From: Thermoanaerobaculia bacterium
GTDB lineage: Bacteria > Acidobacteriota > Thermoanaerobaculia > Gp7-AA8
Reading direction: 5' to 3'
Assembly (NCBI GenBank): GCA_034664845.1
Contig: JAXDGW010000027.1
Coordinates: 1,687-65,686, forward strand
DNA length: 64,000 nt
Below are positions 2,929 through 56,113 of the stretch, piece after piece. The notes below the pieces were generated by a model, which saw only the letters and a program-made list of their open reading frames with translations, was not told the origin of the DNA and did no database searches. The position numbers and the translations under genes were made by a program. Numbering within the stretch: the first letter of the stretch is position 1; every line of letters begins with the position of its first letter.

Positions 2929-2945
2929 CGCGCTGTCAAAAAAAC

Positions 2946-3110
2946 GCTGTCATCCTGAGGCGCCGTAGGACACGAAGTGCCGAAGGACGATCGAAGGACC
3001 CCCCCCGCTTGTGCAGGGTCGGGCGGCGGTAAGAAACCCTCGCACAAGATCAGGGGGTCCTTCGACGTCCTCCGGCACTTCGTGTCCTTCGGCGGTCTCA
3101 GGATGACAGC
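2946..3110. repeat. palindromic MITE-like intergenic element, diverged copy (GCTGTCATCCTGAG ... CTCAGGATGACAGC termini, nested inverted repeats)
   Basis: Terminal inverted repeats and internal palindromes read in sequence. Related to the copies at 10242-10421 and 17675-17822. Confidence 0.7.
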
Positions 3111-3130
3111 GCTCCCACGAACGTATCCGC

Positions 3131-3994
3131 TCAATCCAGCGCCGGCAGATCGCTTACCGGCTGCGGTGCGAGCAGCGTGTGCCAGGCGATTGCGGCGAGG
3201 ACGACGATCGCGCCGGCGATTGCGAATCCCGACGGTTTTTCGCCGAGGAAGAGGAAAACCCAGATCGGATTCGAGACTGGTTCCAGCATTCCTGTCAGCG
3301 ATGCCTGCGTGGCAGTAACGAACGCCAGGCCGCGGACGAAGAGCACGTAGGCGATGGCGATCTGGAAGATGCCGAGGAATGCGAGCACGAAGAAGGAACG
3401 CGGGGTGAGGGCGAGATCGTGCGAGACGAACGGCAGGACTGCCATCGCGCAGACGACGTTCCCCCACGTCACCGCTGCCTGGGCGGCTCGCTGCTCGCGG
3501 CGCAACACCAGGATCAGCGACGCGAAAAAAACGGACGACACGAGAGCCATGGCGTTGCCGGCCATGCCGCGCGCTTCGAAACGGCCGACGAAGAAAAGCG
3601 CCATCCCGCAAAACGCGACGGCGATGGCGATGACATCGCGGCTACGCATCGGCTCGCGGACGACCAGCGGCGAAAAGAGCAGGACCCAGACGACGCCGGC
3701 GTACTGCAGAAAAATCGCGTTCGCCGCCGTCGTCCATTTCGTGGCGATGACGAAGGAGGTGAGGCACGCGCCGTAGCTGATGATGGCGATGACGAACGCG
3801 GTGGTCGACTTCCATTGCCGCCGTCCCCAGACGCCGCGCCCGAGGAAAAGCATCAGCGCGACGGCGGCGAAGATCGACCGGTAGAAGGTGACTTTGAGGG
3901 CGGAGTCGGCGATCGCTTTGATGCCGATGCCGCCGGTCGACCAGAGCAGCGCCGCGGCGATGATCAGCAGAATGCCCTTGCGGCGCGGTTCCAT
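3131..3994 (-). CDS. EamA/DMT-family permease, 287 aa
   Basis: About 10 predicted TM segments; duplicated EamA-like halves. Confidence 0.7.
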   Translation of the reverse strand: MEPRRKGILLIIAAALLWSTGGIGIKAIADSALKVTFYRSIFAAVALMLFLGRGVWGRRQWKSTTAFVIAIISYGACLTSFVIATKWTTAANAIFLQYAGVVWVLLFSPLVVREPMRSRDVIAIAVAFCGMALFFVGRFEARGMAGNAMALVSSVFFASLILVLRREQRAAQAAVTWGNVVCAMAVLPFVSHDLALTPRSFFVLAFLGIFQIAIAYVLFVRGLAFVTATQASLTGMLEPVSNPIWVFLFLGEKPSGFAIAGAIVVLAAIAWHTLLAPQPVSDLPALD

Positions 3995-4018
3995 GAAGGG
4001 CGGGATTCTAAGGCAGGG

Positions 4019-4136
4019 GGAGATAAGAGATCAGAGACAAGAGACTCAGAGACAAGGGATCAGAGACAAGAGATCAGAGACAAGAGATCAGTTAGATCTC
4101 GGCAACGTCCTGATCTCTGATTTCTGATCTCTGTCT
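4019..4136. repeat. simple-sequence hairpin element: (agagatcagagacaag)x~4 on the left arm, complementary gatctctgat units on the right arm
   Basis: Read in sequence; intergenic between co-directional genes. Confidence 0.8.
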
Positions 4137-6164: not shown

Positions 6165-6500
6165 CGTTGTAGCGGCCGCCTTCGCGGCCGCAAATATCGG
6201 GCGCGCATTTCGTCCCCCGGGCCGAGCCCGGGGCTGAGTTTGGGCAGCGCGCCTTCGCGCGCACGCGTTGCGGTTTGCCCTTGAAGATCGCGGATGACCG
6301 CCGACGCGTCAATGCCACGGCAACCGTTGCGTGTTCTAGCGGCCGCCTTCGCGGCCGCAAATCTCGGGCGCATTTCGTCCCCCGGGCCGAGCCCGGGGCT
6401 GAGTTTGGGCAGCGCGCCTTCGCGCGCACGTGAGGCGCGAACCGCGACACTTCGTGAATGCTTCGCCCGACCGAATCGTGAATGCTTCGCCCGACCGAAA
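6165..6500. repeat. tandem duplicated structured element: a ~95-bp unit present twice (6170-6268 and 6339-6432), followed by a 22-bp direct repeat x2 (6455-6498)
   Basis: Near-identical copies read directly. Each contains the palindromes gcggccgccttcgcggccgc and cccgggccgagcccggg. No credible ORF. Confidence 0.8.
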
Positions 6501-6512
6501 CAGGCATGGCGC

Positions 6513-6610
6513 TGGCGGAGGCGCGTCGGAATCGAACCGACCCTTCGACGCTTCCGCGCCGAAACAACGGTTTTGAAGACCGCGGGAGCCACCAGACCCC
6601 ATTCGCCTCC
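6513..6610 (-). tRNA. selC: tRNA-Sec (anticodon UCA), 98 nt
   Basis: Reverse complement is GGAGGCGAAUGGGGUCUGGUGGCUCCCGCGGUCUUCAAAACCGUUGUUUCGGCGCGGAAGCGUCGAAGGGUCGGUUCGAUUCCGACGCGCCUCCGCCA. It has an encoded 3' CCA and a 7-8 bp acceptor stem. The D-stem is 6 bp with a 4-nt loop. The anticodon loop CUUCAAA gives U33 plus anticodon UCA. The variable arm is long (about 22 nt) and the T-arm is GTCGG/TTCGATT/CCGAC. Confidence 0.8.
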
Positions 6611-10241: not shown

Positions 10242-10421
10242 GCGTCACTCTCGCTGTCATTCCGAGCGGGCGGGGCGGCGGGGGGCGAGGAATCCCCCGC
10301 CTACGGAGCGAGTCTCGTGCAGCCACAGCGCCGGTCCGTTCGTAGACTTTGAATTGCGCGATCACGCTGCGTAGTGAGGGGATCCCTCGCCCCCCTCGCC
10401 CCCGCCCGCTCGGAATGACAG
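10242..10421. repeat. palindromic MITE-like element with GCTGTCATTCCGAGCGGGCGGGGCGGCGGGGGGCGAGGAATCCCC termini in inverted orientation, 180 bp
   Basis: Near-perfect terminal inverted repeats of about 45 bp read in sequence. Confidence 0.8.
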
Positions 10422-17674: not shown

Positions 17675-17822
17675 GCTGTCATTCCGAGCTGGCGGGGCGG
17701 CGGGGGCGAGGAATCCCCTGCCGATGTGGAGATGCCCGCTCCGAGGCAGGGGATTTCTCATCGTGCTCCACCGCTCCACCCACACTGCCCGCCCCCGCGG
17801 TTTCGCCCATTAGAAATGACAG
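17675..17822. repeat. palindromic MITE-like element, third copy (right terminus partly degenerate)
   Basis: Left end GCTGTCATTCCGAGCTGGCGGGGCGGCGGGGGCGAGGAATCCCC; right end …GAAATGACAG. Confidence 0.7.
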
Positions 17823-18570: not shown

Positions 18571-20487
18571 CTAAAACTCGATCTGCGCGCCCAACTCCAC
18601 CACCCGGTTCGGCGGCAGGCTAAAAAATCGCGCGGCGCTCTCCGCGTTGCGGGTCATCGAGGCGAAGAGCTTCTCGCGCCAGGTGGCCATGCCACTCTTG
18701 CGCGAGGTCACGATCAGCGTCTCGCGGCCAAGGAAGTAGGTCGTATCCATTGGCGGAATCGACATTCCGTGTTCGCGGCTGACTCGCTCCAGCAAGGCGG
18801 GGATGTCCGGCTCTTCCATGTATCCGTAGCGGCAGGTGATCCGGTAAATCCCTTCGCCGAGGTCTTCGAGTTGGAGGCGCTCGTCATCGCGAAGATGGGA
18901 GACCTCCTCGCTGACCACCGTCAGAAGGATGACCTGTTTGTGGAGGGCTTTGTAGTGCTTCAGGCTGTGGAGCAGCGCGGAGGGAATCACGTCGCGCGAA
19001 CGGTGCATGAAGACGGCGGTGCCCGGCACGCGCACGGGTGCGTGGCCACGCAGCGACGTCACGAAAACCTCGGGAGTCAGCGCTCCTTCGCGAAGGCGCG
19101 CGTTGAGAATCTTCCGCCCACGGCGCCACGTCGTCATGATCGTGAAGACGACCGCGGCGATGAGCAGCGGGAACCAGCCGCCATCGGCGATTTTGAAGAG
19201 ATTCGCGCCGAGGAAGGCCAGATCGCCGAAGAGGAATCCGGCAGTGATCGCGCCCGCCAGCAAGACGCTCCAGTGCAGTTGGTCGCGCGCCACGACATAG
19301 GCCAGGATCGTCGTGATGATCATCGTCGTGCTGACCGCGACGCCGTACGCGCCCGCCAGATTCGTGGAGCTGCGGAAGCCGATCACGAGCGCGATCGTGC
19401 AGAACATCAGCGTCCAGTTCACGGTCGGCATGTAGACCTGTCCGATCTCCGCTTGCGACGTGTGGACGATCTGCATTCGCGGCAGGTAGCCGAGCTGGAT
19501 GGCCTGCCGCGTCAGCGAAAACACGCCGGAGATGATGGCCTGCGACGCGATGACCGTAGCCATCGTGGCCATGATCACGAGCGGATAGAGCGCCCATTTC
19601 GGAGCGAGCAGGTAGAACGGATTGTGCGCCGCCGACGGCTGCCGGATCAGCAGCGCGCCCTGTCCGAAATAGTGAAGCACCAGCGACGGGCCGACGATGT
19701 TGAACCAATCGACTTGGATCGGCTTTTCTCCGAAGTGCCCGAGGTCGGCGTACAGCGCCTCGCCGCCGGTGGTCACAAGAAAGACCGCGCCGAGAACGAG
19801 AAACCCGTGCATCCCGTTGGCCATGAAAAAGCGAACGGCATGCATCGGATTGACCGCCAATAGAACCGACGGCTGCCAGAGGATGCCGCGGATTCCCATC
19901 ACCGCCAGCGTCGAGAACCACACGAGCATCACCGGCCCGAAAACCGAGCCGACACCGGCCGTTCCCCGGCGCTGGAAGAAGAAGAGAACGACGAGAACGA
20001 GAATCGTCAGCGGGATGACATACGGCTTGAAAAACGGTGTCGCAATTTCGAGCCCTTCCACCGCGCTGAGCACCGAGATCGCCGGCGTGATCATGCCGTC
20101 GCCGTACAGCAGCGCGGCTCCGAAAACGCCGAGGACGATCAAGGTCGCGCGGACGGCGGCCGTCCGGCTCTTGTCCATTCCGACGAGACCCATCAGCGCC
20201 AGAATCCCACCCTCCCCTCGGTTGTCGAATCGCAGCACGTAGATGTGGTACTTGACCATCACCACGAGGACGAGCGACCAGAAGATGAGCGAGAGAATGC
20301 CGAACACGTTCGCCTGTGTCAGCGGCACGGGATGCGATCCGTAGAAGCACTCGCGCATCGCGTAGAGCGGGCTGGTGCCGATGTCGCCGTAGACGATACC
20401 GAGGGCCAGCAGCGATAAGGATAGGAGACGGCGACCCTTCGGCTCTTCGCGTTCGTGATGCGCCGGAAGCACTGCAACTTCAGTCAA
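18571..20487 (-). CDS. kup: Kup/HAK/KT potassium uptake transporter, 638 aa
   Basis: Canonical N-terminus (LALGIVYGDIGTSPLYA) and full-length topology. Confidence 0.9.
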   Translation of the reverse strand: MTEVAVLPAHHEREEPKGRRLLSLSLLALGIVYGDIGTSPLYAMRECFYGSHPVPLTQANVFGILSLIFWSLVLVVMVKYHIYVLRFDNRGEGGILALMGLVGMDKSRTAAVRATLIVLGVFGAALLYGDGMITPAISVLSAVEGLEIATPFFKPYVIPLTILVLVVLFFFQRRGTAGVGSVFGPVMLVWFSTLAVMGIRGILWQPSVLLAVNPMHAVRFFMANGMHGFLVLGAVFLVTTGGEALYADLGHFGEKPIQVDWFNIVGPSLVLHYFGQGALLIRQPSAAHNPFYLLAPKWALYPLVIMATMATVIASQAIISGVFSLTRQAIQLGYLPRMQIVHTSQAEIGQVYMPTVNWTLMFCTIALVIGFRSSTNLAGAYGVAVSTTMIITTILAYVVARDQLHWSVLLAGAITAGFLFGDLAFLGANLFKIADGGWFPLLIAAVVFTIMTTWRRGRKILNARLREGALTPEVFVTSLRGHAPVRVPGTAVFMHRSRDVIPSALLHSLKHYKALHKQVILLTVVSEEVSHLRDDERLQLEDLGEGIYRITCRYGYMEEPDIPALLERVSREHGMSIPPMDTTYFLGRETLIVTSRKSGMATWREKLFASMTRNAESAARFFSLPPNRVVELGAQIEF

Positions 20488-20503: not shown

Positions 20504-20590
20504 GGATCAGAGACGAGAGACTAGAGATCAGAGATCAGGAGTAGTGAAGCGCTGTCCTGATCTCTGATCTTTAGTCTCTTGTCTCTGATT
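20504..20590. repeat. simple-sequence hairpin element (gatcagagacgagagactagagatcagagatcagg / loop / near-perfect reverse complement)
   Basis: Stem of about 35 bp read in sequence. Confidence 0.85.
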
Positions 20591-48124: not shown

Positions 48125-48810
48125 TGGACTGGATGAACTGGAAAACCTGGACAGTAATCGGCGCGATTCTCATCGCGATCTTTGCGATCTACGGCTACGC
48201 CTCGAATTCGAGCAGTGGCGATGTACCTCTGCCCGCCGCGACGGGACCGCGTACAGCGTCAAAGGCCGCGTCTCGCATTCCGGTATCTGCAAATACGCCC
48301 GGCGTTCCAACGCTTCATACGGAGTGGCTCGAGGCGCCGAGCGGCAGCTACAAGAGCGCGCGCAACCTCTTCGCATACAAAGAGCCACCGCCGCCACCAC
48401 CACCCCCGCCACCTCCTCCTGTAGTCGCTCCCCCGGATCAGGATCATGACGGCATCCCTGATTTTCGCGATAACTGTCCTGCGGCATACAACCCCGATCA
48501 AAAGGACACGGATCACAATGGCAAGGGCGACACATGCGACGCCGAATGGCAGGCCTACAATGCGGCGCACCCGCCTCCGCCGCCGGCTCCGGTTCCGCCG
48601 CCATTCACATACAAATACATCGGCACGTTCGGCCCCGCTTCGAATCCGATCGCAACATTCACAGGCAACGGCGAGATCATCAACGTGCGCGTCAATGAAG
48701 CGTTCGGCGGGGGGAAGTTCATCCTCCGCAGCATCGGGATCGAATCAGTCGAGATCGGCTACACCGGTTTCCCGCCGGACAAGAAAGACCGCGTGCCGCT
48801 CGGTCAGTGA
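48121..48810 (+). CDS. pilP: PilP-like lipoprotein with an inserted thrombospondin type-3 Ca-binding repeat and poly-Pro tracts, 229 aa
   Basis: TSP3 consensus DQDHDGIPDFRDNCPAAYNPDQKDTDHNGKGDTCD flanked by P12 and PPPPPAPVPPP. C-terminal beta domain …NGEIINVRVNEAFGGGKFILRSIGIESVEI. Confidence 0.6.
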   Translation: MMDWMNWKTWTVIGAILIAIFAIYGYASNSSSGDVPLPAATGPRTASKAASRIPVSANTPGVPTLHTEWLEAPSGSYKSARNLFAYKEPPPPPPPPPPPPVVAPPDQDHDGIPDFRDNCPAAYNPDQKDTDHNGKGDTCDAEWQAYNAAHPPPPPAPVPPPFTYKYIGTFGPASNPIATFTGNGEIINVRVNEAFGGGKFILRSIGIESVEIGYTGFPPDKKDRVPLGQ

Positions 48811-48849
48811 CCTTTGAATAGCGTTACCGTCAGAACATCAGAATAAGGA

Positions 48850-49008
48850 GGGAGTTGGAAGAGACAAGAGATTAGAGACTAGAGATCAGAGATCAGAAAG
48901 ACAATCGAAGTTTCTGACCACCGATCAGGAATCACAGATCTTTCAAAGAAGATCGAGCTTCCCCTGATCTCTAATCACTGATCTCTGATCTCTGAGCATC
49001 CAACTCCC
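48850..49008. repeat. simple-sequence hairpin element between pilP and pilQ (gagacaagagattagagactagagatcagagatcag … ctgatctctaatcactgatctctgatctctgag)
   Basis: Read in sequence. Outer arms ggagttgga / tccaactcc also pair. Confidence 0.8.
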
Positions 49009-49017
49009 GGAAATCAA

Positions 49018-51438
49018 ATGAATAAGACCAGACTCGGAATTACAGCATTGGCGTTGTCGCTGACCGTGCTTTCCTGCACGAGCTACAATGCCTTCCAGAA
49101 GGCGAAGCACGCCGAGACGACGAAGAATTGGGACTCGGCCGTGGTCGAGTACCAGAAAGCGCTCGACGTCGATCCGGGAAACACGCTCTACCAGATCAAC
49201 CTGTCGCGCGCCAAGCTCGAAGCCTCGCGCGTCCATTTCGAGAAAGGCAAAGCGTTGCGCGTCTCCGCGCTCAACACGCGTGGCGCGGAGCTCGTCCGCC
49301 TCATGAAGCTTGCCGCCACGGAGCTCGAGCTGACCATCAGGCTCGATCCGACCAACCAGTTTGCCGCCAGCGAATACGCCAAGACCACGGCCACTCTCCA
49401 GGAAATCGCGCAGGCCGGCCTGCCCCCATCCATCGACGACATCAAGCGCCGCGCCAAAGCGAACATTACAAAGTCGGCGCCGCCACAGCTCAGCCCCACA
49501 TCCGATCAGCCCATCTCCCTCTCCTTCCCACAGGAACGTCCGATCAAGGAAATCTACAAAGCCCTCGGAAACGCGTTCGGAATCAACATTCTTTTCGATC
49601 AGGCAGTCAAAGACGACCGCATCGCCATCGAGCTCAAGGACGTCACCGCGCAGCAGGCGCTCGAGCGCGTCATGCAGGCCGCCAATCATTTCTACAAAGC
49701 GCTCGACGAGCACACCATCATCGTCGTTCCTGACAACCCCCAGGCCCGCCGCGATTACGAAGATCTCGTCATCCGCACGTTCTACCTGTCGAACGGCGAC
49801 GCCGAGCAGGTCACCAACGTCGTCCGGACGATGATCGAAGCGCGCAACGTCTTCCCGCTCAAAGCGCTCAACGCCATCACCATCCGCGATACCGCCGATA
49901 AGGTGCGCATCGCCGAGAAGATCATCGAGGCCAATGACAAGGCGAAAGCCGAAGTCGTCGTCGACGTCGAGCTGCTCCAGATCGATCTCGATAAGCAGCA
50001 CGACATCGGCGCCGTCGTCGCCGGTCTCGGCGGCACTCTTTCCGCCACACTGCCGACTGACAAGGACGGCAAAGCTCTACCCGCCAATCTCGACGCGCTA
50101 CGCGGCATCCGCAGCCCCGACCTCACCTTCACGATTCCCTCCGTGAACTACAACTTCATCAAAACCGTCGGAAACACCCAGACGCTCGCCAATCCGGAGC
50201 TGCGCATTTCCGAAGGGGAAAAGGCGACGCTGCATATCGGACAGCGCGTTCCGGTTCCTGTGACGACGTTCACGACCGGCGTGCAGAACGGAACGCTGGG
50301 AAGTCTGCCGGCGACGTCCTTCCAATATCAGGACATCGGCATCAAGGTCTCCATCGAGCCGCGGGTGCATCACAACAACGAAGTCACGCTCAAGCTGACG
50401 GTCGAGGTTTCCGACATCGCGGCCGCCGCCACGACTTCCGATCTGCCGTCGTTCAACACGCGCACCATCGAAGCGACGATCCGGCTGAAAGATGGTGAGA
50501 CGAACTTCCTCGCCGGCCTCATTCAGGAGACGGAAGGCACCACCAGCCAGCGCACGCCGTTCCTCGGCGACATCCCCATCCTCGGCCGGCTCTTCACGAA
50601 AGACAAATCGTCGCGGCATCGCACCGATCTGATGCTCACGATGACGCCGCACATCATCCGTAAACCGGATATCACCGAGGATGATCTGGCGCCGATGTGG
50701 GTCGGAACGCAGAGCAACTTGAGCTTCCGCGGACTTTCGCCGCGTCTCGAATCGCAGTCCACGGTCGATCCCTTCTCGCCGCCGCCGGGCGCACAGCAGT
50801 TCCGCACCGGCACCGTCGATCCGGACGGCAATCCCATCCCGGCCACCAACATGGTCGTACCGCAGGGCACCGCTCCCACCGATCCGTTCCGCGCCACGCC
50901 GAACGCGCCGCCGCCGAATCCGCCTGCGAATCCGCAGCCGGAGAGCAAGCTTTCCCTTCCTTCCAACGGCACCGCGGTCGCACTTTCCAACGCGAACAGC
51001 GGCGCGCTCAACGACAACAGCGGGCTCTCGCCGCGCATCCAGCCGCAGCCGATGCGTCTCGCGTTCAAGCCGGGCGAAGAGAAGATCTGGAACGTCGTCG
51101 GGATGGATCTCGACGGCCTGACGACGACGCAGCTCCTTCTTCACTACAACCCGCAGACGCTCGATGTCAGCGAGATCTCTTTCGGGCCTGCCCTGAATAT
51201 CGATCTGAAGACGCCGCCCGTCGCGACGATCGACCGCGAGCACGGAACCATCCGCATCACATCGTCGAACGGAAAACCGTTGCAGTTCAACGCGGGAGGC
51301 GGCGAGATCGCAGCGCTCCGCGTTCGCGGCGGTGCACCCGGCGAGACCTACCTCGTGCTCGATAATCCCAACCTGACCAACGGCAGCGGCACAGTCGTCG
51401 CCGCATCCGTCTCAGGAGGCCACGCAAAGGTCGACTGA
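49018..51438 (+). CDS. pilQ: PilQ secretin with N-terminal TPR-like region and Pro-rich C-terminal extension, 806 aa
   Basis: Secretin domain motifs (…VPVPVTT…, GETNFLAGLIQETEG, TPFLGDIPILGRLF…TDLMLTMTPHII). Confidence 0.85.
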   Translation: MNKTRLGITALALSLTVLSCTSYNAFQKAKHAETTKNWDSAVVEYQKALDVDPGNTLYQINLSRAKLEASRVHFEKGKALRVSALNTRGAELVRLMKLAATELELTIRLDPTNQFAASEYAKTTATLQEIAQAGLPPSIDDIKRRAKANITKSAPPQLSPTSDQPISLSFPQERPIKEIYKALGNAFGINILFDQAVKDDRIAIELKDVTAQQALERVMQAANHFYKALDEHTIIVVPDNPQARRDYEDLVIRTFYLSNGDAEQVTNVVRTMIEARNVFPLKALNAITIRDTADKVRIAEKIIEANDKAKAEVVVDVELLQIDLDKQHDIGAVVAGLGGTLSATLPTDKDGKALPANLDALRGIRSPDLTFTIPSVNYNFIKTVGNTQTLANPELRISEGEKATLHIGQRVPVPVTTFTTGVQNGTLGSLPATSFQYQDIGIKVSIEPRVHHNNEVTLKLTVEVSDIAAAATTSDLPSFNTRTIEATIRLKDGETNFLAGLIQETEGTTSQRTPFLGDIPILGRLFTKDKSSRHRTDLMLTMTPHIIRKPDITEDDLAPMWVGTQSNLSFRGLSPRLESQSTVDPFSPPPGAQQFRTGTVDPDGNPIPATNMVVPQGTAPTDPFRATPNAPPPNPPANPQPESKLSLPSNGTAVALSNANSGALNDNSGLSPRIQPQPMRLAFKPGEEKIWNVVGMDLDGLTTTQLLLHYNPQTLDVSEISFGPALNIDLKTPPVATIDREHGTIRITSSNGKPLQFNAGGGEIAALRVRGGAPGETYLVLDNPNLTNGSGTVVAASVSGGHAKVD

Positions 51439-51926: not shown

Positions 51927-51932
51927 GAGGCA

Positions 51933-52100
51933 GTGGATTAGCTGTTAGTAGATTAGTGGATGCAGACCAGAGATTAGAGGAGCAGAGACTAGAGATAAGA
52001 GATGGATTGGAAAGCACCCAGCGTCCCATCGTCTCCTAATCCACTAATCCACTCAGCTACTAATCCACTGATCTCTGGTCCGCTGATCTCTGATCTCTCG
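51933..52100. repeat. large simple-sequence hairpin element (gattagtgga / agagat units versus ctaatccact / gatctct units), arms of about 70 bp
   Basis: Read in sequence; lies between two pilin genes. Confidence 0.8.
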
Positions 52101-52109
52101 GGACAACAC

Positions 52110-52541
52110 ATGCAACGACGCAAATCGCAATCCGGCTTCACCCTCATCGAGCTGATCGTCGTCGTCACGATCATCGGCATCCTCGCGGCCGTAGCCGTAT
52201 CGAACGTCAAGTGGGCGCAGACGAAAGCACGCGAGGCCGCGCTCCGGCACGACCTGTTCGAGATGCGCAAATCGATCGACGACTACTACGCGGACAAACA
52301 AAAATATCCCGAGAGCCTGCAGACGCTCATGCGGGAGCACTACCTCCGCAACATCCCGGCCGATCCGATCACCGGCAAGCCGGATTGGGAGGAAGTGCAG
52401 AACACGCCTGATCCCTCGGATCCGAACGCGATGCCGACCGATCCTTCGGCGGGGAACGAAGGCGCGGCCCCAGGCATCTACGACGTACACAGTCAGGCTC
52501 CCGGCGTTGGACAGGATGGCAAACCCTACAAAACCTGGTGA
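52110..52541 (+). CDS. type IV pilin / GspG-like pseudopilin, 143 aa
   Basis: MQRRKSQSG|FTLIELIVVVTIIGILAAVAVS with Glu+5; GspG-like C-terminal region. Confidence 0.7.
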   Translation: MQRRKSQSGFTLIELIVVVTIIGILAAVAVSNVKWAQTKAREAALRHDLFEMRKSIDDYYADKQKYPESLQTLMREHYLRNIPADPITGKPDWEEVQNTPDPSDPNAMPTDPSAGNEGAAPGIYDVHSQAPGVGQDGKPYKTW

Positions 52542-53256
52542 GGCGCGGTTTCGCGGTCTCGCGGTTGCGCGGTCTCGCGGCCCTCGCGCGGCAGAGCGAC
52601 GCGCGCGACCACGCAACCACGCGACCGCACAGTCCGGCTTCACGCTCGCCGGCGTCATCGTCCTCGTATCGATCGTGATGATCTTCGCTGCCTACACCAT
52701 TCCGCGGCAGTGGTCGGCAATCATGCAGCGCGAGCGCGAACGGCAAACGATTTACGCGATGCAGCAGTACGCGAAGGCGATCACGGAGTTCCGTCTCAAG
52801 AACGGAAACGTCTACCCGACGACGCCGCAGCAGCTCAAGGACGCCAAACAGCCGCGCCTGATCCGCGGCTTGAAGGGCGAGCTCGTCGACGCGCTCACCG
52901 GCGAAGTCGACTGGCTCGTCATCCCGCAAGCCGCCGCCGCCAGTCTTCCCCAACGCAACATTGCCGGGAACCCAAACGCGCCTCCGAACGCGCCGCCACC
53001 CCCACCGCCACCCACGCAATCGTCGTCGACGACCGACACCAGCAGCACGAACCCCCAGGCGCCGCCAGGACTACCCGGCATCCCCATCAAGGACTACGCC
53101 GGCGGCCCGTTCATCGGCGTGCGTCCTGCCAAACACGGCAAGTCGCTCACGACGTTGTACGGCGCCGACACCTACGAAACGTGGGTCTACACGTCCATCG
53201 ACTACGAGCAGGAAAAACTGCTGCGCATCACGCAGGCATCCACCGTCTTTCATTAG
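52507..53256 (+). CDS. atypical pilin-like protein lacking Glu+5 (QSG|FTLAGVIVLV), with an unusually long, repeat-encoded leader and Pro-rich C-terminal region; start uncertain
   Basis: Prepilin-like hydrophobic N-terminus but Gly at +5, as in GspK/PilX-type pseudopilins. The only in-frame ATGs give a 41-44 aa leader. Confidence 0.5.
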   Translation: MDRMANPTKPGEARFRGLAVARSRGPRAAERRARPRNHATAQSGFTLAGVIVLVSIVMIFAAYTIPRQWSAIMQRERERQTIYAMQQYAKAITEFRLKNGNVYPTTPQQLKDAKQPRLIRGLKGELVDALTGEVDWLVIPQAAAASLPQRNIAGNPNAPPNAPPPPPPPTQSSSTTDTSSTNPQAPPGLPGIPIKDYAGGPFIGVRPAKHGKSLTTLYGADTYETWVYTSIDYEQEKLLRITQASTVFH

Positions 53257-53322: not shown

Positions 53323-54609
53323 ATGTCATCCAACCTTCAAAACGTTACCCGCATCGTCCTCCCCTCGGGGCTGACGATCCTGATCGAAACGCTTCCCTAC
53401 GTCCGTTCCGTCGCCCTCGGCTACTACCTTCGCAGCGGCTCCGCCGTCGAGTCGGAGGAGCACAGCGGTTCCTCCCACTTTCTCGAACATCTCGTCTTCA
53501 AAGGAACCGCGACACGATCCACGAGCGACATCGCCAAAGTCATCGACATCCTCGGCGGCGACGTCGACGCGTTCACCGGCAAGGAGTACACATCCTTCTA
53601 CTGCCACGTCCTCGACGAGCAGATGATGACCGGCCTCTCGCTGCTCACCGACATCGTCATCTCACCGCGTTTCACCGATGACGACCTCGAAGTCGAGCGC
53701 GGCGTGATCCTCGAAGAGATCAAGATGGTCGAGGACACGCCCGACGATCTCGTGCACGAGATCTTCGTCACCGCCTTCTGGCCTGATCACCCGCTCGGCC
53801 GGCCGATTCTCGGCACCGAGGAGACGGTGAACCGGCTGGGAAGAAAGCAGATCATGGCGCACTACGACGAGACCTTCCACCCGTCGAACATGATCTTCTG
53901 CGCCTCCGGCAACGTCCGCCCCGAGCAGATCATCCCGTTCCTGCAGACGACGTTCGCGAGCGACACCAAGGCGCCTGTGGCGCGCACATGGGGCGCGCCG
54001 ACGCCGGCGCAGCACGTGATCCTGCGCGAAAAGCGCGAGCTCGAACAGGTTCACCTCTGCCTCGGATCGCGCGGCTATCCGCAACAGCAGGACGAGCGAT
54101 ATGCGGCCGCCCTTTTCAACGCCGTCCTCGGCGGCGGGATGTCCTCGCGCCTCTTCCAGAAAATCCGCGAGAAAGCGGGCCTCGTCTACACCGTCATGTC
54201 GTACCACAATGGCTACGTCAACGGCGGCTACGAAGCGATCTACGCCGCCTGCGCGCCGAAAAATCTCAAGCGCGTGCTCGACATGACCCTCGCCGAAATG
54301 AAGACGATCAAGACCGGCGGCGCCACCGCGGACGAGCTCAACTCCGCCAAACTGCATCTCAAAGGATCGATCCTGCTTTCACTCGAATCGACGGTGAGCC
54401 GCATGTCCGGCCTGGCCCGCCAGGAGTACTACTTCGGCCGCCAGTTCTCCCCCGACGAGATCATCGCCGCCATCGACGCCGTAACTCTCGACGACATCGC
54501 CGCCGTCGCCCACACCATCGTCGACCCCGAGTCGCTCTCGCTCACGTTAATCGGCAACCTGAAGTCGCCCGGAATCACCGCCGACATGCTGCGCCAGGCA
54601 GTGGCGTAG
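53323..54609 (+). CDS. M16 family zinc peptidase (insulinase/pitrilysin-like), ~428 aa
   Basis: Inverted zinc motif HFLEHLVFKG and downstream Glu region. Confidence 0.85.
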   Translation: MSSNLQNVTRIVLPSGLTILIETLPYVRSVALGYYLRSGSAVESEEHSGSSHFLEHLVFKGTATRSTSDIAKVIDILGGDVDAFTGKEYTSFYCHVLDEQMMTGLSLLTDIVISPRFTDDDLEVERGVILEEIKMVEDTPDDLVHEIFVTAFWPDHPLGRPILGTEETVNRLGRKQIMAHYDETFHPSNMIFCASGNVRPEQIIPFLQTTFASDTKAPVARTWGAPTPAQHVILREKRELEQVHLCLGSRGYPQQQDERYAAALFNAVLGGGMSSRLFQKIREKAGLVYTVMSYHNGYVNGGYEAIYAACAPKNLKRVLDMTLAEMKTIKTGGATADELNSAKLHLKGSILLSLESTVSRMSGLARQEYYFGRQFSPDEIIAAIDAVTLDDIAAVAHTIVDPESLSLTLIGNLKSPGITADMLRQAVA

Positions 54610-54760
54610 GAGTGCGCGCGTCTCGCGCGCGGGCACGCGGGCGTCTCGCCCGCGTGCTTGTTTTCGTGGGCAGAAGTCGAAGCTCCAATTCGTATTCGGC
54701 CGTGTTCCCACCACCGGGGCGAGGACGCCCCGGTGGCCGCAGGCGAGACGCCTGCACTCC

Positions 54761-56113
54761 TTATTTCTTCGCGATGGCTGGCAAGTTCTTCGACGTCGTG
54801 TCGACGAACGCTACTGAGACGCCTTCCTTGATGCGATGCGAGACTTCCTGCGCGTCCCAGTTCGTCAGGCGCACGCAGCCGTGCGACGAGGCGTAGCCGA
54901 TCGAGTCGGGGTCGGGAGTGCCGTGCATGCCGTAGTGCGGCTTGCTCAGCGCCATCCAGACGACGCCGACGGGCGAGTTCGGGCCGGGGTTCATGTGCGC
55001 GTCCGGCTCGCTGTCCGGCACTTCGTGGTAGAGCTTGGGATCGTAGTGAAAGTGCGGCATCGGCACGATCTTGACGACGTGTACGGTCTCGTCGGGTGAC
55101 GGGTCGTATCCCGATCCGAGGGTGGTAGGAGCGTGGAAAACCTGATTGCCGGCCGCGTCGAATCCGTTGTACGAATTGCCTCCGATGGAGATCGCGATGT
55201 TGGCGATATCCGGCTGATCCCGCGTGATCGGGGCGCGAACGTTCGGGACATTGATCGCCGCTCCCGCCTGCAGATCATTGATCTTCACGTCAGGGTTCAG
55301 TTGCTCCAGGAAATCCTCCGAGCAATGGAAGCGCTCCGCCAGCGCCTCGCGAAGTGACTCGTAGCAGAGGCAGTCGAGCTTGGCCTTTTCGTACGGACCT
55401 TCCGGAATGCCCACGAATGGCCCTTTGGTGTCGTCCGCTGTGAGCGTGTAGGGAACGACCACCGCACCACCGCCCGCCGCCTGCGCGATCGAGGTGAAGG
55501 TGGCATCGTCGACGTCGCCCGTCGGCGCCATCCCGTGCGCCTTCTGCCACCACCAGACCGTGATCGCTGAATTGCGGCCCCAGCGTCCATCGATCACGCC
55601 GACGGAGAAATGGTTTCGATCGAGATAGACCTGCGTCTTGAGTACCGAGGGGCCGCGCAGGTCGCCGGAGATCGGCAGATTCACGGGAGTGCTGTTGATC
55701 GCATTCGCGTCGAGGCCTTTGAACGATTCTTTCCGCCCGTGAACGATCGTGATGTCCGGCGGCAGTTGCGGCGCGGCCTGCTGCGCGGCCTGCGCGGCTT
55801 GTTGCTGGGCCGCTGCCTGCTGTTGCGCAGCCGCCTGTTGTTGTTGCTGCGCCGCTGCCTGCGCGGCTTGCTGCGCGCGGAACGATTGGAGTTGACGCCA
55901 TTGCTGATCGAAACGCTGTTTCTCGCGCTCCTGCGGCGTCATCGCCGGCTCGTTGCCACCGAGCGGCGTCGACACATCGAGCGTGTCGGAGAGCTTCTGT
56001 TCAACCTTCTGCGCCGCGCTCTTCGCACGCGAGGTCGTCTCCTGAACCTGTTCCCGATCGCACGCGATACACAATACCGTCAAGAAAAAAACGAATTCTG
56101 TCCGTCGTCTCAT
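54761..56113 (-). CDS. L,D-transpeptidase (YkuD/ErfK family) with N-terminal Gln/Ala-rich low-complexity linker, 450 aa
   Basis: Catalytic SHGCVRL motif near the C-terminus; signal peptide; (QQAAQ)n tract. Confidence 0.8.
   Translation of the reverse strand: MRRRTEFVFFLTVLCIACDREQVQETTSRAKSAAQKVEQKLSDTLDVSTPLGGNEPAMTPQEREKQRFDQQWRQLQSFRAQQAAQAAAQQQQQAAAQQQAAAQQQAAQAAQQAAPQLPPDITIVHGRKESFKGLDANAINSTPVNLPISGDLRGPSVLKTQVYLDRNHFSVGVIDGRWGRNSAITVWWWQKAHGMAPTGDVDDATFTSIAQAAGGGAVVVPYTLTADDTKGPFVGIPEGPYEKAKLDCLCYESLREALAERFHCSEDFLEQLNPDVKINDLQAGAAINVPNVRAPITRDQPDIANIAISIGGNSYNGFDAAGNQVFHAPTTLGSGYDPSPDETVHVVKIVPMPHFHYDPKLYHEVPDSEPDAHMNPGPNSPVGVVWMALSKPHYGMHGTPDPDSIGYASSHGCVRLTNWDAQEVSHRIKEGVSVAFVDTTSKNLPAIAKK

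Follow-up and report, generated by a model that had tools for sequence, protein, structure and literature searches.

Palindromic heptanucleotide-repeat hairpins in the intergenic spacers of a soil Thermoanaerobaculia genome

Results

Hairpins of tandem 7-nt units fill gene junctions

We analyzed a 64,000-nt stretch of a Thermoanaerobaculia bacterium (assembly GCA_034664845.1, contig JAXDGW010000027.1, positions 1,687 to 65,686 of the forward strand; hereafter the window), in which an initial annotation, made from the letters alone, had pointed to five intergenic simple-sequence hairpins. These elements belong to a known but unexplained class of repeats, whose closest described members by architecture are the cyanobacterial short tandemly repeated repetitive (STRR) sequences. 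On balance, we lean towards regarding them as palindromic heptanucleotide microsatellites, resembling STRR hairpins, that are made and renewed at the DNA level by slippage and hairpin-templated copying. Support comes from their architecture, the dominance of period 7, the turnover of units, unit-sized indels, strand-symmetric mismatches and the lack of covariation.

Direct reading of the five regions showed that, in every one, short units repeated in tandem are followed by a loop and then by the reverse-complementary array, and repeat scans and folding confirmed these long imperfect hairpins. The five hairpins are real and far above chance expectation: GATCAGAGA occurs 9 times in the window against 0.83 expected, and AGAGAYHAGAGAYHAG, with at most one mismatch, 24 times against 0.02, all matches being confined to four of the five regions. 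Mapping of the arms with Tandem Repeats Finder and an inverted-repeat scan identified 7 nt as the basic period (AGAGAYN, CTCTTAG), with 8 nt in two arms, and a strict autocorrelation filter returned period-7 arrays only, with essentially none at the other periods between 5 and 12. Short repeats had thus been rightly recognized at first, whereas their units need redrawing: the proposed 16-mer is two 7-mers plus overlap, and "gattagtgga" corresponds to the 8-nt unit TAGTGGAT. Similarly, the core said to be shared by all copies, GATCAGAGA, is found in four of the five elements and is absent from that at 1385-1515. A sixth element, built on the 8-nt unit CGCGGTCT at 52544-52626, is missing from the initial annotation. 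The elements of the window, here numbered E1 to E6, are 85-180 nt long, and their units differ among copies (CTCTTAG, AGAGAYN, TAGTGGAT, CGCGGTCT). They are arranged as follows.

E1, 1386-1526: (TTAGCTC)x7.6 at 1386-1438 and (CTAAGAG)x5 at 1488-1523/1526, inverted repeats up to 90% complementary; between an aldehyde dehydrogenase gene (stop 1516) and a GlnA-like gene (start 1380), minus strand.
E2, 4019-4136: (GAGACAAGAGATCA)x5.1, that is, ten 7-nt units, at 4020-4091 and (CTGATCT)x3.4 at 4110-4133; between an 86-aa PQ-loop gene (stop 4148) and an EamA gene (start 3994), minus strand.
E3, 20504-20590: near-perfect palindrome with 35-nt arms at 20506-20540 and 20555-20589, 94% complementary, and a 14-nt loop; between a PRMT-like gene (stop 20654) and Kup (start 20487), minus strand.
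E4, 48846-49008: nested hairpin with an outer stem of GGGAGTTGGA (48850-48859) and TCCAACTCCC (48999-49008) and inner AGAGAYN arrays at 48860-48897 and 48964-48995; between a gene in PilP position and the secretin gene pilQ, plus strand.
E5, 51932-52099: palindromes A and B, interleaved as A B A' B'; between a 162-aa prepilin-like gene (stop 51926) and a pilin gene (ATG 52110; N-terminus GFSVAELITVVAIV), plus strand.
E6, 52544-52626: (CGCGGTCT)x4.6 at 52544-52580 and (CGCGACCA)x2.9 at 52604-52626; right after the pilin stop (52541) and before or overlapping the next pseudopilin gene (GFTLAG motif at 52636).

All six elements are intergenic, and each fills the stop-to-start spacer between co-directional genes; for E1 to E5, the flanking pair is co-directional in every case, as first proposed. 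The right arm of E1, whose pyrimidine-rich arm comes first, extends into the 3' end of the aldehyde dehydrogenase gene, the arms of E2 are highly unequal (10 versus 3.4 units), and the variant units of E3 appear in mirrored order between its arms. Palindrome A of E5 (TAGTGGAT-type) pairs 51932-51961 with 52036-52069 at a duplex energy of −35.0 kcal/mol, and palindrome B (AGAGAYN) pairs 51966-52004 with 52068-52099 at −35.4 kcal/mol; the repeat scan placed the 3' array at 52036-52098. The feet of the elements read GGATCAGAG, GGGAGTTGGA, GGAGATAAG, TTAGCTC and CAGTGGATT. Predicted RNA minimum free energies (MFE) range from −44 to −73 kcal/mol on either strand, with values of −68.1 (plus) and −63.7 (minus) for E1, −72.2 (plus) and −54.6 (minus) for E3, −70.6 for E4 and −66.6 for E6. 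In a shuffle test of two of the five annotated elements, z was −5.3 for E4 and −2.8 for E5; E6 scored −3.0.

The 5' foot of E4 holds AAGGAGG (48846-48852), the sole Shine-Dalgarno-like sequence upstream of pilQ, whose ATG (49018) lies 9 nt past the 3' foot, and the outer stem of this element looks like a remnant of a GGGAGTC-type hairpin known from relatives. AGAGAYN arrays occupy four junctions of this genome. The contig carries at least four units, plus a fifth, GTTGTCG, in its right flank, where (GTTGTCG)x2.6 and (AACCGAC)x2.4 form a heptamer hairpin ~7.4 kb to the right of the window (locus L201, 21442-21559) between a 79-aa minus-strand open reading frame (ORF) and a plus-strand GAF/SpoIIE gene; provided that the short ORF is genuine, this spacer is divergent. 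Hairpin density in this lineage of soil Thermoanaerobaculia is ~1 per 11 kb.

The window lies within a 128-kb soil-metagenome contig from JGI, and its RecN is 82-86% identical to that of metagenome-assembled genomes (MAGs) named Thermoanaerobaculia (Acidobacteriota). An independent Logan assembly (run SRR24887407) matches the window at 100% identity along 6514 nt spanning E4 to E6, and hence these three elements are not assembly errors. With the same architecture also present in relatives, an assembly artefact was ruled out; neither of the two outcomes that would have undone the initial annotation, absence from relatives or faulty assembly, came about. Short-read contigs do end inside E2 and inside a neighboring MITE (miniature inverted-repeat transposable element).

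Gene calls are affected around two of the elements. A 44-aa ORF called by JGI within the E2 array (L203 9868-10002, window ~3993-4127) is probably spurious. The pseudopilin gene that follows E6 (window 52516-52700) encodes the processing motif GFTLAGVIVL from 52636, and there is no ATG, GTG or TTG between E6 and this motif; its start calls differ, the 246-aa JGI ORF from 52516 reading through E6 and the Logan start at ~52678 dropping the motif.

Period 7 predominates in relatives, and the architecture spans phyla

A metagenome scan with PilQ retrieved 80 loci from relatives (uncultured Thermoanaerobaculia, 54-86% PilQ identity), amounting to 843 kb with the window. Arrays were counted from 2.8 copies upwards and scored as paired when a complementary array lay within 250 nt. 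Period 7 yielded 181 arrays, 143 of them paired (79%), and period 8 yielded 35, with 20 paired. By contrast with these, periods 5, 10 and 11 returned 4, 2 and 1 arrays (0, 0 and 1 paired), and periods 3, 6, 9 and 12 returned 45, 75, 59 and 9 (0, 0, 1 and 0 paired). The period-7 arrays comprise 68 distinct units, and the hairpins do not constitute a sequence family. For the 69 distinct paired elements, the medians are 109 nt in length (10th-90th percentile 92-137), 41 base pairs and −59.6 kcal/mol in MFE. At junctions with clear gene calls, on which the gene-relative statistics are based (the codon-usage caller missed genes at 22-32 kb), the median distance of their feet is 0.5 nt from the upstream stop and −4 nt from the downstream start, so that they reach into the start region.

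The family had been taken as specific to this lineage, which the wider census contradicts. The exact three-unit AGAGAYN pattern occurs in at least 118 species-representative genomes, against ~4 expected by chance as estimated from the information content of the pattern and database size. The matches listed include Acidobacteriota (several Thermoanaerobaculia), Bacteroidota, Chloroflexota, Patescibacteria, Planctomycetota, Verrucomicrobiota, Proteobacteria, Bacillota and one cyanobacterium; among those with both flanks, 17 of 95 (~18%) have a complementary array within 300 nt, and folding confirmed long hairpins in widely different phyla. Thus, neither the AGAGAYN unit nor the architecture is lineage-specific.

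Units turn over at orthologous junctions

At orthologous junctions, relatives differ in the units of their hairpins, and some lack a spacer altogether. Between the T2SSE ATPase (PilB-like) gene and the next one, 32 loci, the window among them, have a spacer of 1-12 nt and 14 have one of 87-120 nt, and heptamer hairpins account for 13 of these 14 long spacers; their units (GAATGCA, GAACGAG, GAAGGCA, GAATTGA, AAATTTC, ACCAGAA) are in several cases one substitution apart. Upstream of pilQ, the hairpins of relatives are of the GGGAGTC, GAGTCCT/GAGTGCT, GAGTGAT, GAGTGCC or AGAGAYN type; other relatives have a MITE there, short seed stems (for example, GTCCTG..CAGGAC) or no element. An AGAGAYN hairpin is nested in a GGGAGTC hairpin in L122 and L143, as in the window, whereas L121 and L147 have the outer type only. 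The junction preceding the pilin gene offers a graded series that runs from overlapping genes through 20-36-nt spacers with a single AGTGG seed and one-arm AACGATG arrays to full hairpins. The one-arm arrays, which lie directly 5' of the pilin start in some relatives (L148, L175, L199 and L200; L157, L159 and L185 are also listed), as opposed to the full AACGATG hairpin of others, may be intermediates of gain or loss. Hairpins of 8-nt units are also found 3' of the pilin gene in L123, L127, L134 and L183, in a spacer that, as placed without alignment, apparently corresponds to that of E6.

Single units are gained or lost between near-identical strains. L158 and L159 (99.83% identical) differ by an indel of one 7-nt AAATTTC unit, and L136 and L137 (98.6% identical) by one 8-nt ATTAGTGG unit. 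Within genomes, 12 of 47 element pairs share units, compared with 149 of 1990 between genomes (Fisher p 1.8e-4). The initial view of a recurrent, non-random intergenic class is borne out, and AGAGAYN does recur at four junctions of this genome.

Upstream of pilQ, we also observed a palindrome, TGAC-N12-22-CGTC[AT], that is present in 59 of 77 relatives whatever hairpin follows and that in the window (48807-48833) overlaps the stop of the PilP-position gene; a regulator may bind there, or the palindrome may be a small conserved stem.

Complementarity decays alike on both strands

A selected fold of the sense RNA predicts an excess of G-U pairs over A-C mismatches, the latter being the G-U pairs of the antisense strand. 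Of 62 elements, 33 have the better fold on the sense strand and 29 on the antisense strand, and G-U pairs number 173 on the sense and 177 on the antisense strand (Wilcoxon p 0.64). In the window, E1 to E5 all fold better on the strand antisense to their flanking genes, where G-U pairs are also more numerous; since this effect is gone in the 62-element sample, it may be chance (p ~0.06) or a mutational or lineage bias of this genome. Among 11 orthologous GGGAGTC-type hairpins, no covariation was detected (covariation term +0.64, compensatory change in 2 of 24 pairs); many pairs are broken, and departures of the G-U and A-C kinds are similar (10 versus 8). From the symmetric G-U counts and the lack of covariation it follows that complementarity is not kept base by base; it rather decays symmetrically and would be restored by turnover of whole units.

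Relation to known repeat classes

Heptanucleotide repeats of the STRR type have been known since 1990. They consist of 7-bp tandem repeats, with several units per genome, and form hairpins between co-transcribed genes such as hupS-hupL, for which roles in transcript stability or translational coupling have been suggested (PMC2670836). The window elements share with them over-represented 7-nt units of several types per genome, an intergenic location between predicted operon genes, and an array that can fold with its complement (PMC2670836). The differences are the host (cyanobacteria such as Nostoc and Anabaena versus Thermoanaerobaculia of the Acidobacteriota), the unit sequences, the pairing of 79% of the period-7 arrays, and the occupation of the entire stop-to-start spacer by the hairpin. 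The likeness is one of architecture only and implies no homology. The published STRR units CCCCAGT, TTGGTCA and CAACAGT are absent among the 60 commonest units of the 843-kb set, and we accordingly assign STRR membership by architecture, not sequence.

In many bacteria, heptanucleotides have been described as ranking first in abundance among long simple sequence repeats; polymerase slippage has been put forward as a cause, along with a preference of the polymerase for this period (Mrazek 2007, as cited in PMC4679880 and PMC4692102). As far as those citing papers convey, such repeats (Xanthomonas GGGAATC, Nostoc GGGGAYT) also have period 7 as the dominant one among non-coding repeats and are intergenic; they likewise vary in length and sequence between close relatives at the same gene pair, with some inverted pairs (PMC4692102; PMC4679880), occasional ones in the case of GGGAATC (PMC4692102), and in Nostoc heptamer repeats lie near start codons (bioRxiv 10.1101/2022.06.06.494920). 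They are, however, mostly one-arm direct arrays of a single G-rich unit with quadruplex potential per study, while here units are many and the hairpin form is the rule. TAACTGA repeats of marine Beggiatoaceae, some Cyanobacteria and Bacteroidetes also lie as heptamer arrays a few nt 5' of start codons with no tie to downstream gene function, yet they keep one conserved unit genome-wide, form 169 direct sets against one inverted, and have been ascribed to a trans-acting binder (PMC4679880). The statement that no matching family was known therefore gives way to a published class, that of STRR (PMC2670836) and heptanucleotide repeats (PMC4679880, PMC4692102), although the literature searched contained no description of such hairpins in Acidobacteria. 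The window hairpins add a further lineage to a type of repeat that has been described before but is little understood.

The comparison originally drawn was with repetitive extragenic palindromic (REP) sequences. REPs and REPINs are, like the window hairpins, extragenic imperfect palindromes in many copies, often between co-directional or convergent genes. They are, nonetheless, 20-40 nt long, conserved in sequence within a genome, headed by GTAG or CGTC (PMC3733652), and linked to a Y1 transposase. The window hairpins show none of the first three features: they measure 85-180 nt, the lineage has 68 units, and GTAG/CGTC heads are absent from the feet of the five annotated elements; no transposase domain was found among the genes annotated on ~79 kb of the contig. 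The REP-like label is not supported. MITEs resemble the hairpins as intergenic hairpin-forming DNA of 100-170 nt, but MITE copies share termini and internal sequence, whereas the heptamer hairpins share period and architecture only, with no shared termini or duplications at the boundaries of the five annotated elements.

The window does contain a true MITE-like family with inverted termini GCTGTCATYCYGAG...CTCRGRATGACAGC (copies at 2944-3113, 10254-10421 and 17676-17822), which forms GC-rich hairpins of 150-170 nt (MFE −136 kcal/mol for 2929-3130). More copies lie in the left flank of the contig (L203 ~18999-19480), and one is found upstream of pilQ in L166 (2080-2093).

Discussion

How the hairpins may arise and persist

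If the heptamer hairpins are microsatellites maintained as DNA, a short local seed stem in an intercistronic spacer would be lengthened by replication slippage in steps of 7 nt, or less often 8 nt; we count as direct signs of slippage the unequal arms of E2 and the single-unit indels of near-identical strains. Hairpin-templated copying (through intrastrand template switching or correction of the quasi-palindrome), and not base-by-base selection, would keep the arms complementary, and units would be homogenized and swapped fast, with one type occasionally reaching several junctions of a genome. Such fast replacement would let the sequence at a junction drift while the architecture stays. In general, SbcCD limits long palindromes in DNA. 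In operon spacers, these hairpins would be tolerated as long as the folded ~40-bp stem leaves the stop and start a few unpaired nt apart, so that downstream translation need not be lost; the fold of E4 would in addition hold the Shine-Dalgarno sequence near the AUG.

Several observations weigh against this reading. The T2SSE spacer lengths are bimodal, with no intermediates, a pattern that resembles insertion, or selection for a stem of full size, more than stepwise lengthening. Persistence of a hairpin at one junction across relatives with 55-65% PilQ identity may point to a function, and the reuse of units within genomes, together with the nested and interleaved AGAGAYN arrays of E4 and E5, could reflect transposition or a factor acting in trans. 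In 54 of 67 elements (p 4.5e-7, for elements that are phylogenetically non-independent) and in 15 of 17 cross-phylum hairpins among the matches listed (p 0.002), the purine-rich arm precedes the other. This polarity, identical when read from either DNA strand and to which E1 is a rare exception, is outside the predictions of a neutral slippage model. Moreover, the G-U test was run without a positive control, and the relatives were all sampled around one operon, a comparison of intergenic region classes lying outside this scope. As for the source of the polarity, an origin in Shine-Dalgarno sequences is doubtful because the Bacteroidota matches share the bias.

Selected RNA stems

The leading alternative, which we hold to be possible but distinctly less probable, is that the hairpins are selected RNA elements of polycistronic mRNAs, acting as RNase III processing or stabilizing stems or coupling translation through a bridged or "shunted" ribosome-binding site. 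At ~40 bp, the stems would be RNase III substrates. All window elements lie between co-directional genes with feet flush with stop and start codons. E4 and all GGGAGTC-type relatives have the sole Shine-Dalgarno-like AGGAGG at the 5' foot and the ATG 8-10 nt past the 3' foot. The narrow size range (92-137 nt, 10th-90th percentile) and the two-state T2SSE spacer would also suit selection on RNA, as would the cross-phylum arrays, which lie in convergent spacers more often than in divergent ones (19 versus 9) and have the purine strand as sense in 50 cases versus 29, counts from crude ORF calls that are indicative only. Similar roles have been suggested for the STRR hairpins between hupS and hupL (PMC2670836).

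Against such selection stand the missing sense G-U excess (173 versus 177) and the lack of covariation, with broken pairs frequent among orthologues, so that the transcript-structuring role envisaged in the initial annotation gains no support from evolution. In addition, the element is absent at the same junction in close relatives, which have 1-nt spacers, and one element of the same contig apparently lies in a divergent spacer. A promoter and terminator scan of 48-53 kb found no site coinciding with E4 to E6, T-runs are absent after the stems of the five annotated elements, as an intrinsic terminator would need, and Rfam at gathering score matched no family to the hairpins over the window, a selenocysteine tRNA (6517-6610) being its only hit.

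Hairpin-bridged or punctuated translation units are exemplified by the intercistronic RNase III sites of phage T7, the split ribosome-binding site of phage T4 gene 38 and the ribosome shunt of cauliflower mosaic virus (CaMV) 35S RNA. Their layout of a stop or Shine-Dalgarno sequence, a long stable stem and an AUG a few nt later is also that found here. The likeness is an analogy for a possible way of working only, and the hairpins lack the evolutionary marks that selection on an RNA stem would leave.

A structure-directed process across phyla

A broader proposal, which strikes us as improbable, is that the hairpins are products and substrates of a sequence-independent, structure-directed process operating across phyla. 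This could be a polar fold-back DNA synthesis or repair that builds purine-first palindromes in 7-nt steps, or a selected operon punctuation that hands terminating ribosomes across a ~40-bp stem to the following start codon, either as a bacterial counterpart of ribosome shunting or as a hairpin-bridged ribosome-binding site. The cross-phylum purine-first bias, the within-genome reuse of units and the succession of Shine-Dalgarno sequence, stem and AUG at pilQ speak in favor of readings of this kind.

Mobile elements and periodic binding sites

We consider it very unlikely that, as first suggested, the hairpins depend for their movement on a transposase or nuclease encoded elsewhere, in the manner of non-autonomous REP/REPIN- or MITE-like mobile elements. 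Mobility would fit the four AGAGAYN junctions, a 23-nt run common to E3 and E4, the nesting of E4 in an older hairpin and the interleaving of E5 with one, the enriched sharing of units within genomes, and the presence or absence of full elements at the T2SSE junction. Nevertheless, conserved termini, target-site duplications and GTAG/CGTC heads are lacking, unit types number 68, and the occurrence of seeds and one-arm intermediates at the same sites suggests that the hairpins grow where they are. No transposase, Y1/RAYT (REP-associated tyrosine transposase) or reverse-transcriptase domain was found in the scanned ORFs of the window or in precomputed Pfam calls on ~79 kb of the contig, and the true MITE family of the same window, with its conserved inverted termini, looks quite different. 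The 23-nt identity of E3 and E4 was not accepted as proof of transposition because the arrays use only ~5 unit variants, among which such a run is not improbable.

Least probable of all, the arrays could be periodic sites for a protein reading ~7 nt per subunit (cold-shock protein, ribosomal protein S1, CsrA or a HutP/TRAP-like ring), with the complementary arm as a competitor hiding them: the constant period of 7, the many purine arms reading (GAG-N4)n, the proximity of arrays to start codons and like proposals for TAACTGA (PMC4679880) and Nostoc heptamer repeats (bioRxiv 10.1101/2022.06.06.494920) are outweighed by 68 unrelated units in one lineage, several per genome and some (AACGATG, AAATTTC, CGTTGGC) without a common motif, and by the locking of 79% of the period-7 arrays in duplex.

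A natural series for heptanucleotide repeats

Soil Thermoanaerobaculia provide a dense natural series in which one operon junction is sampled in dozens of relatives, with and without an element and with different units per site, and which allows a clean separation of DNA-level maintenance from RNA-level selection. Two testable regularities have already emerged from it, namely the purine-arm-first polarity and the strand-symmetric decay. Annotators of acidobacterial MAGs should mask these arrays, since they break short-read assemblies and attract spurious ORF calls.

Other features of the window

In PilQ (49018-51438), C-terminal residues 697-795 give a weak cohesin-like match (E 9e-4), and the 229-aa gene in PilP position has a thrombospondin type-3 repeat as its only match. 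A long GC-rich hairpin with an 11-nt repeat, neither of heptamer nor of MITE type, lies at 54608-54761 (MFE −104.8 kcal/mol for 54600-54770) between the convergent M16 peptidase gene and 54761-56113 (minus strand). Finally, the selenocysteine tRNA gene at 6517-6610 (minus strand; RF01852, 71 bits) is flanked by a perfect 24-nt tandem duplication at 6452-6499.

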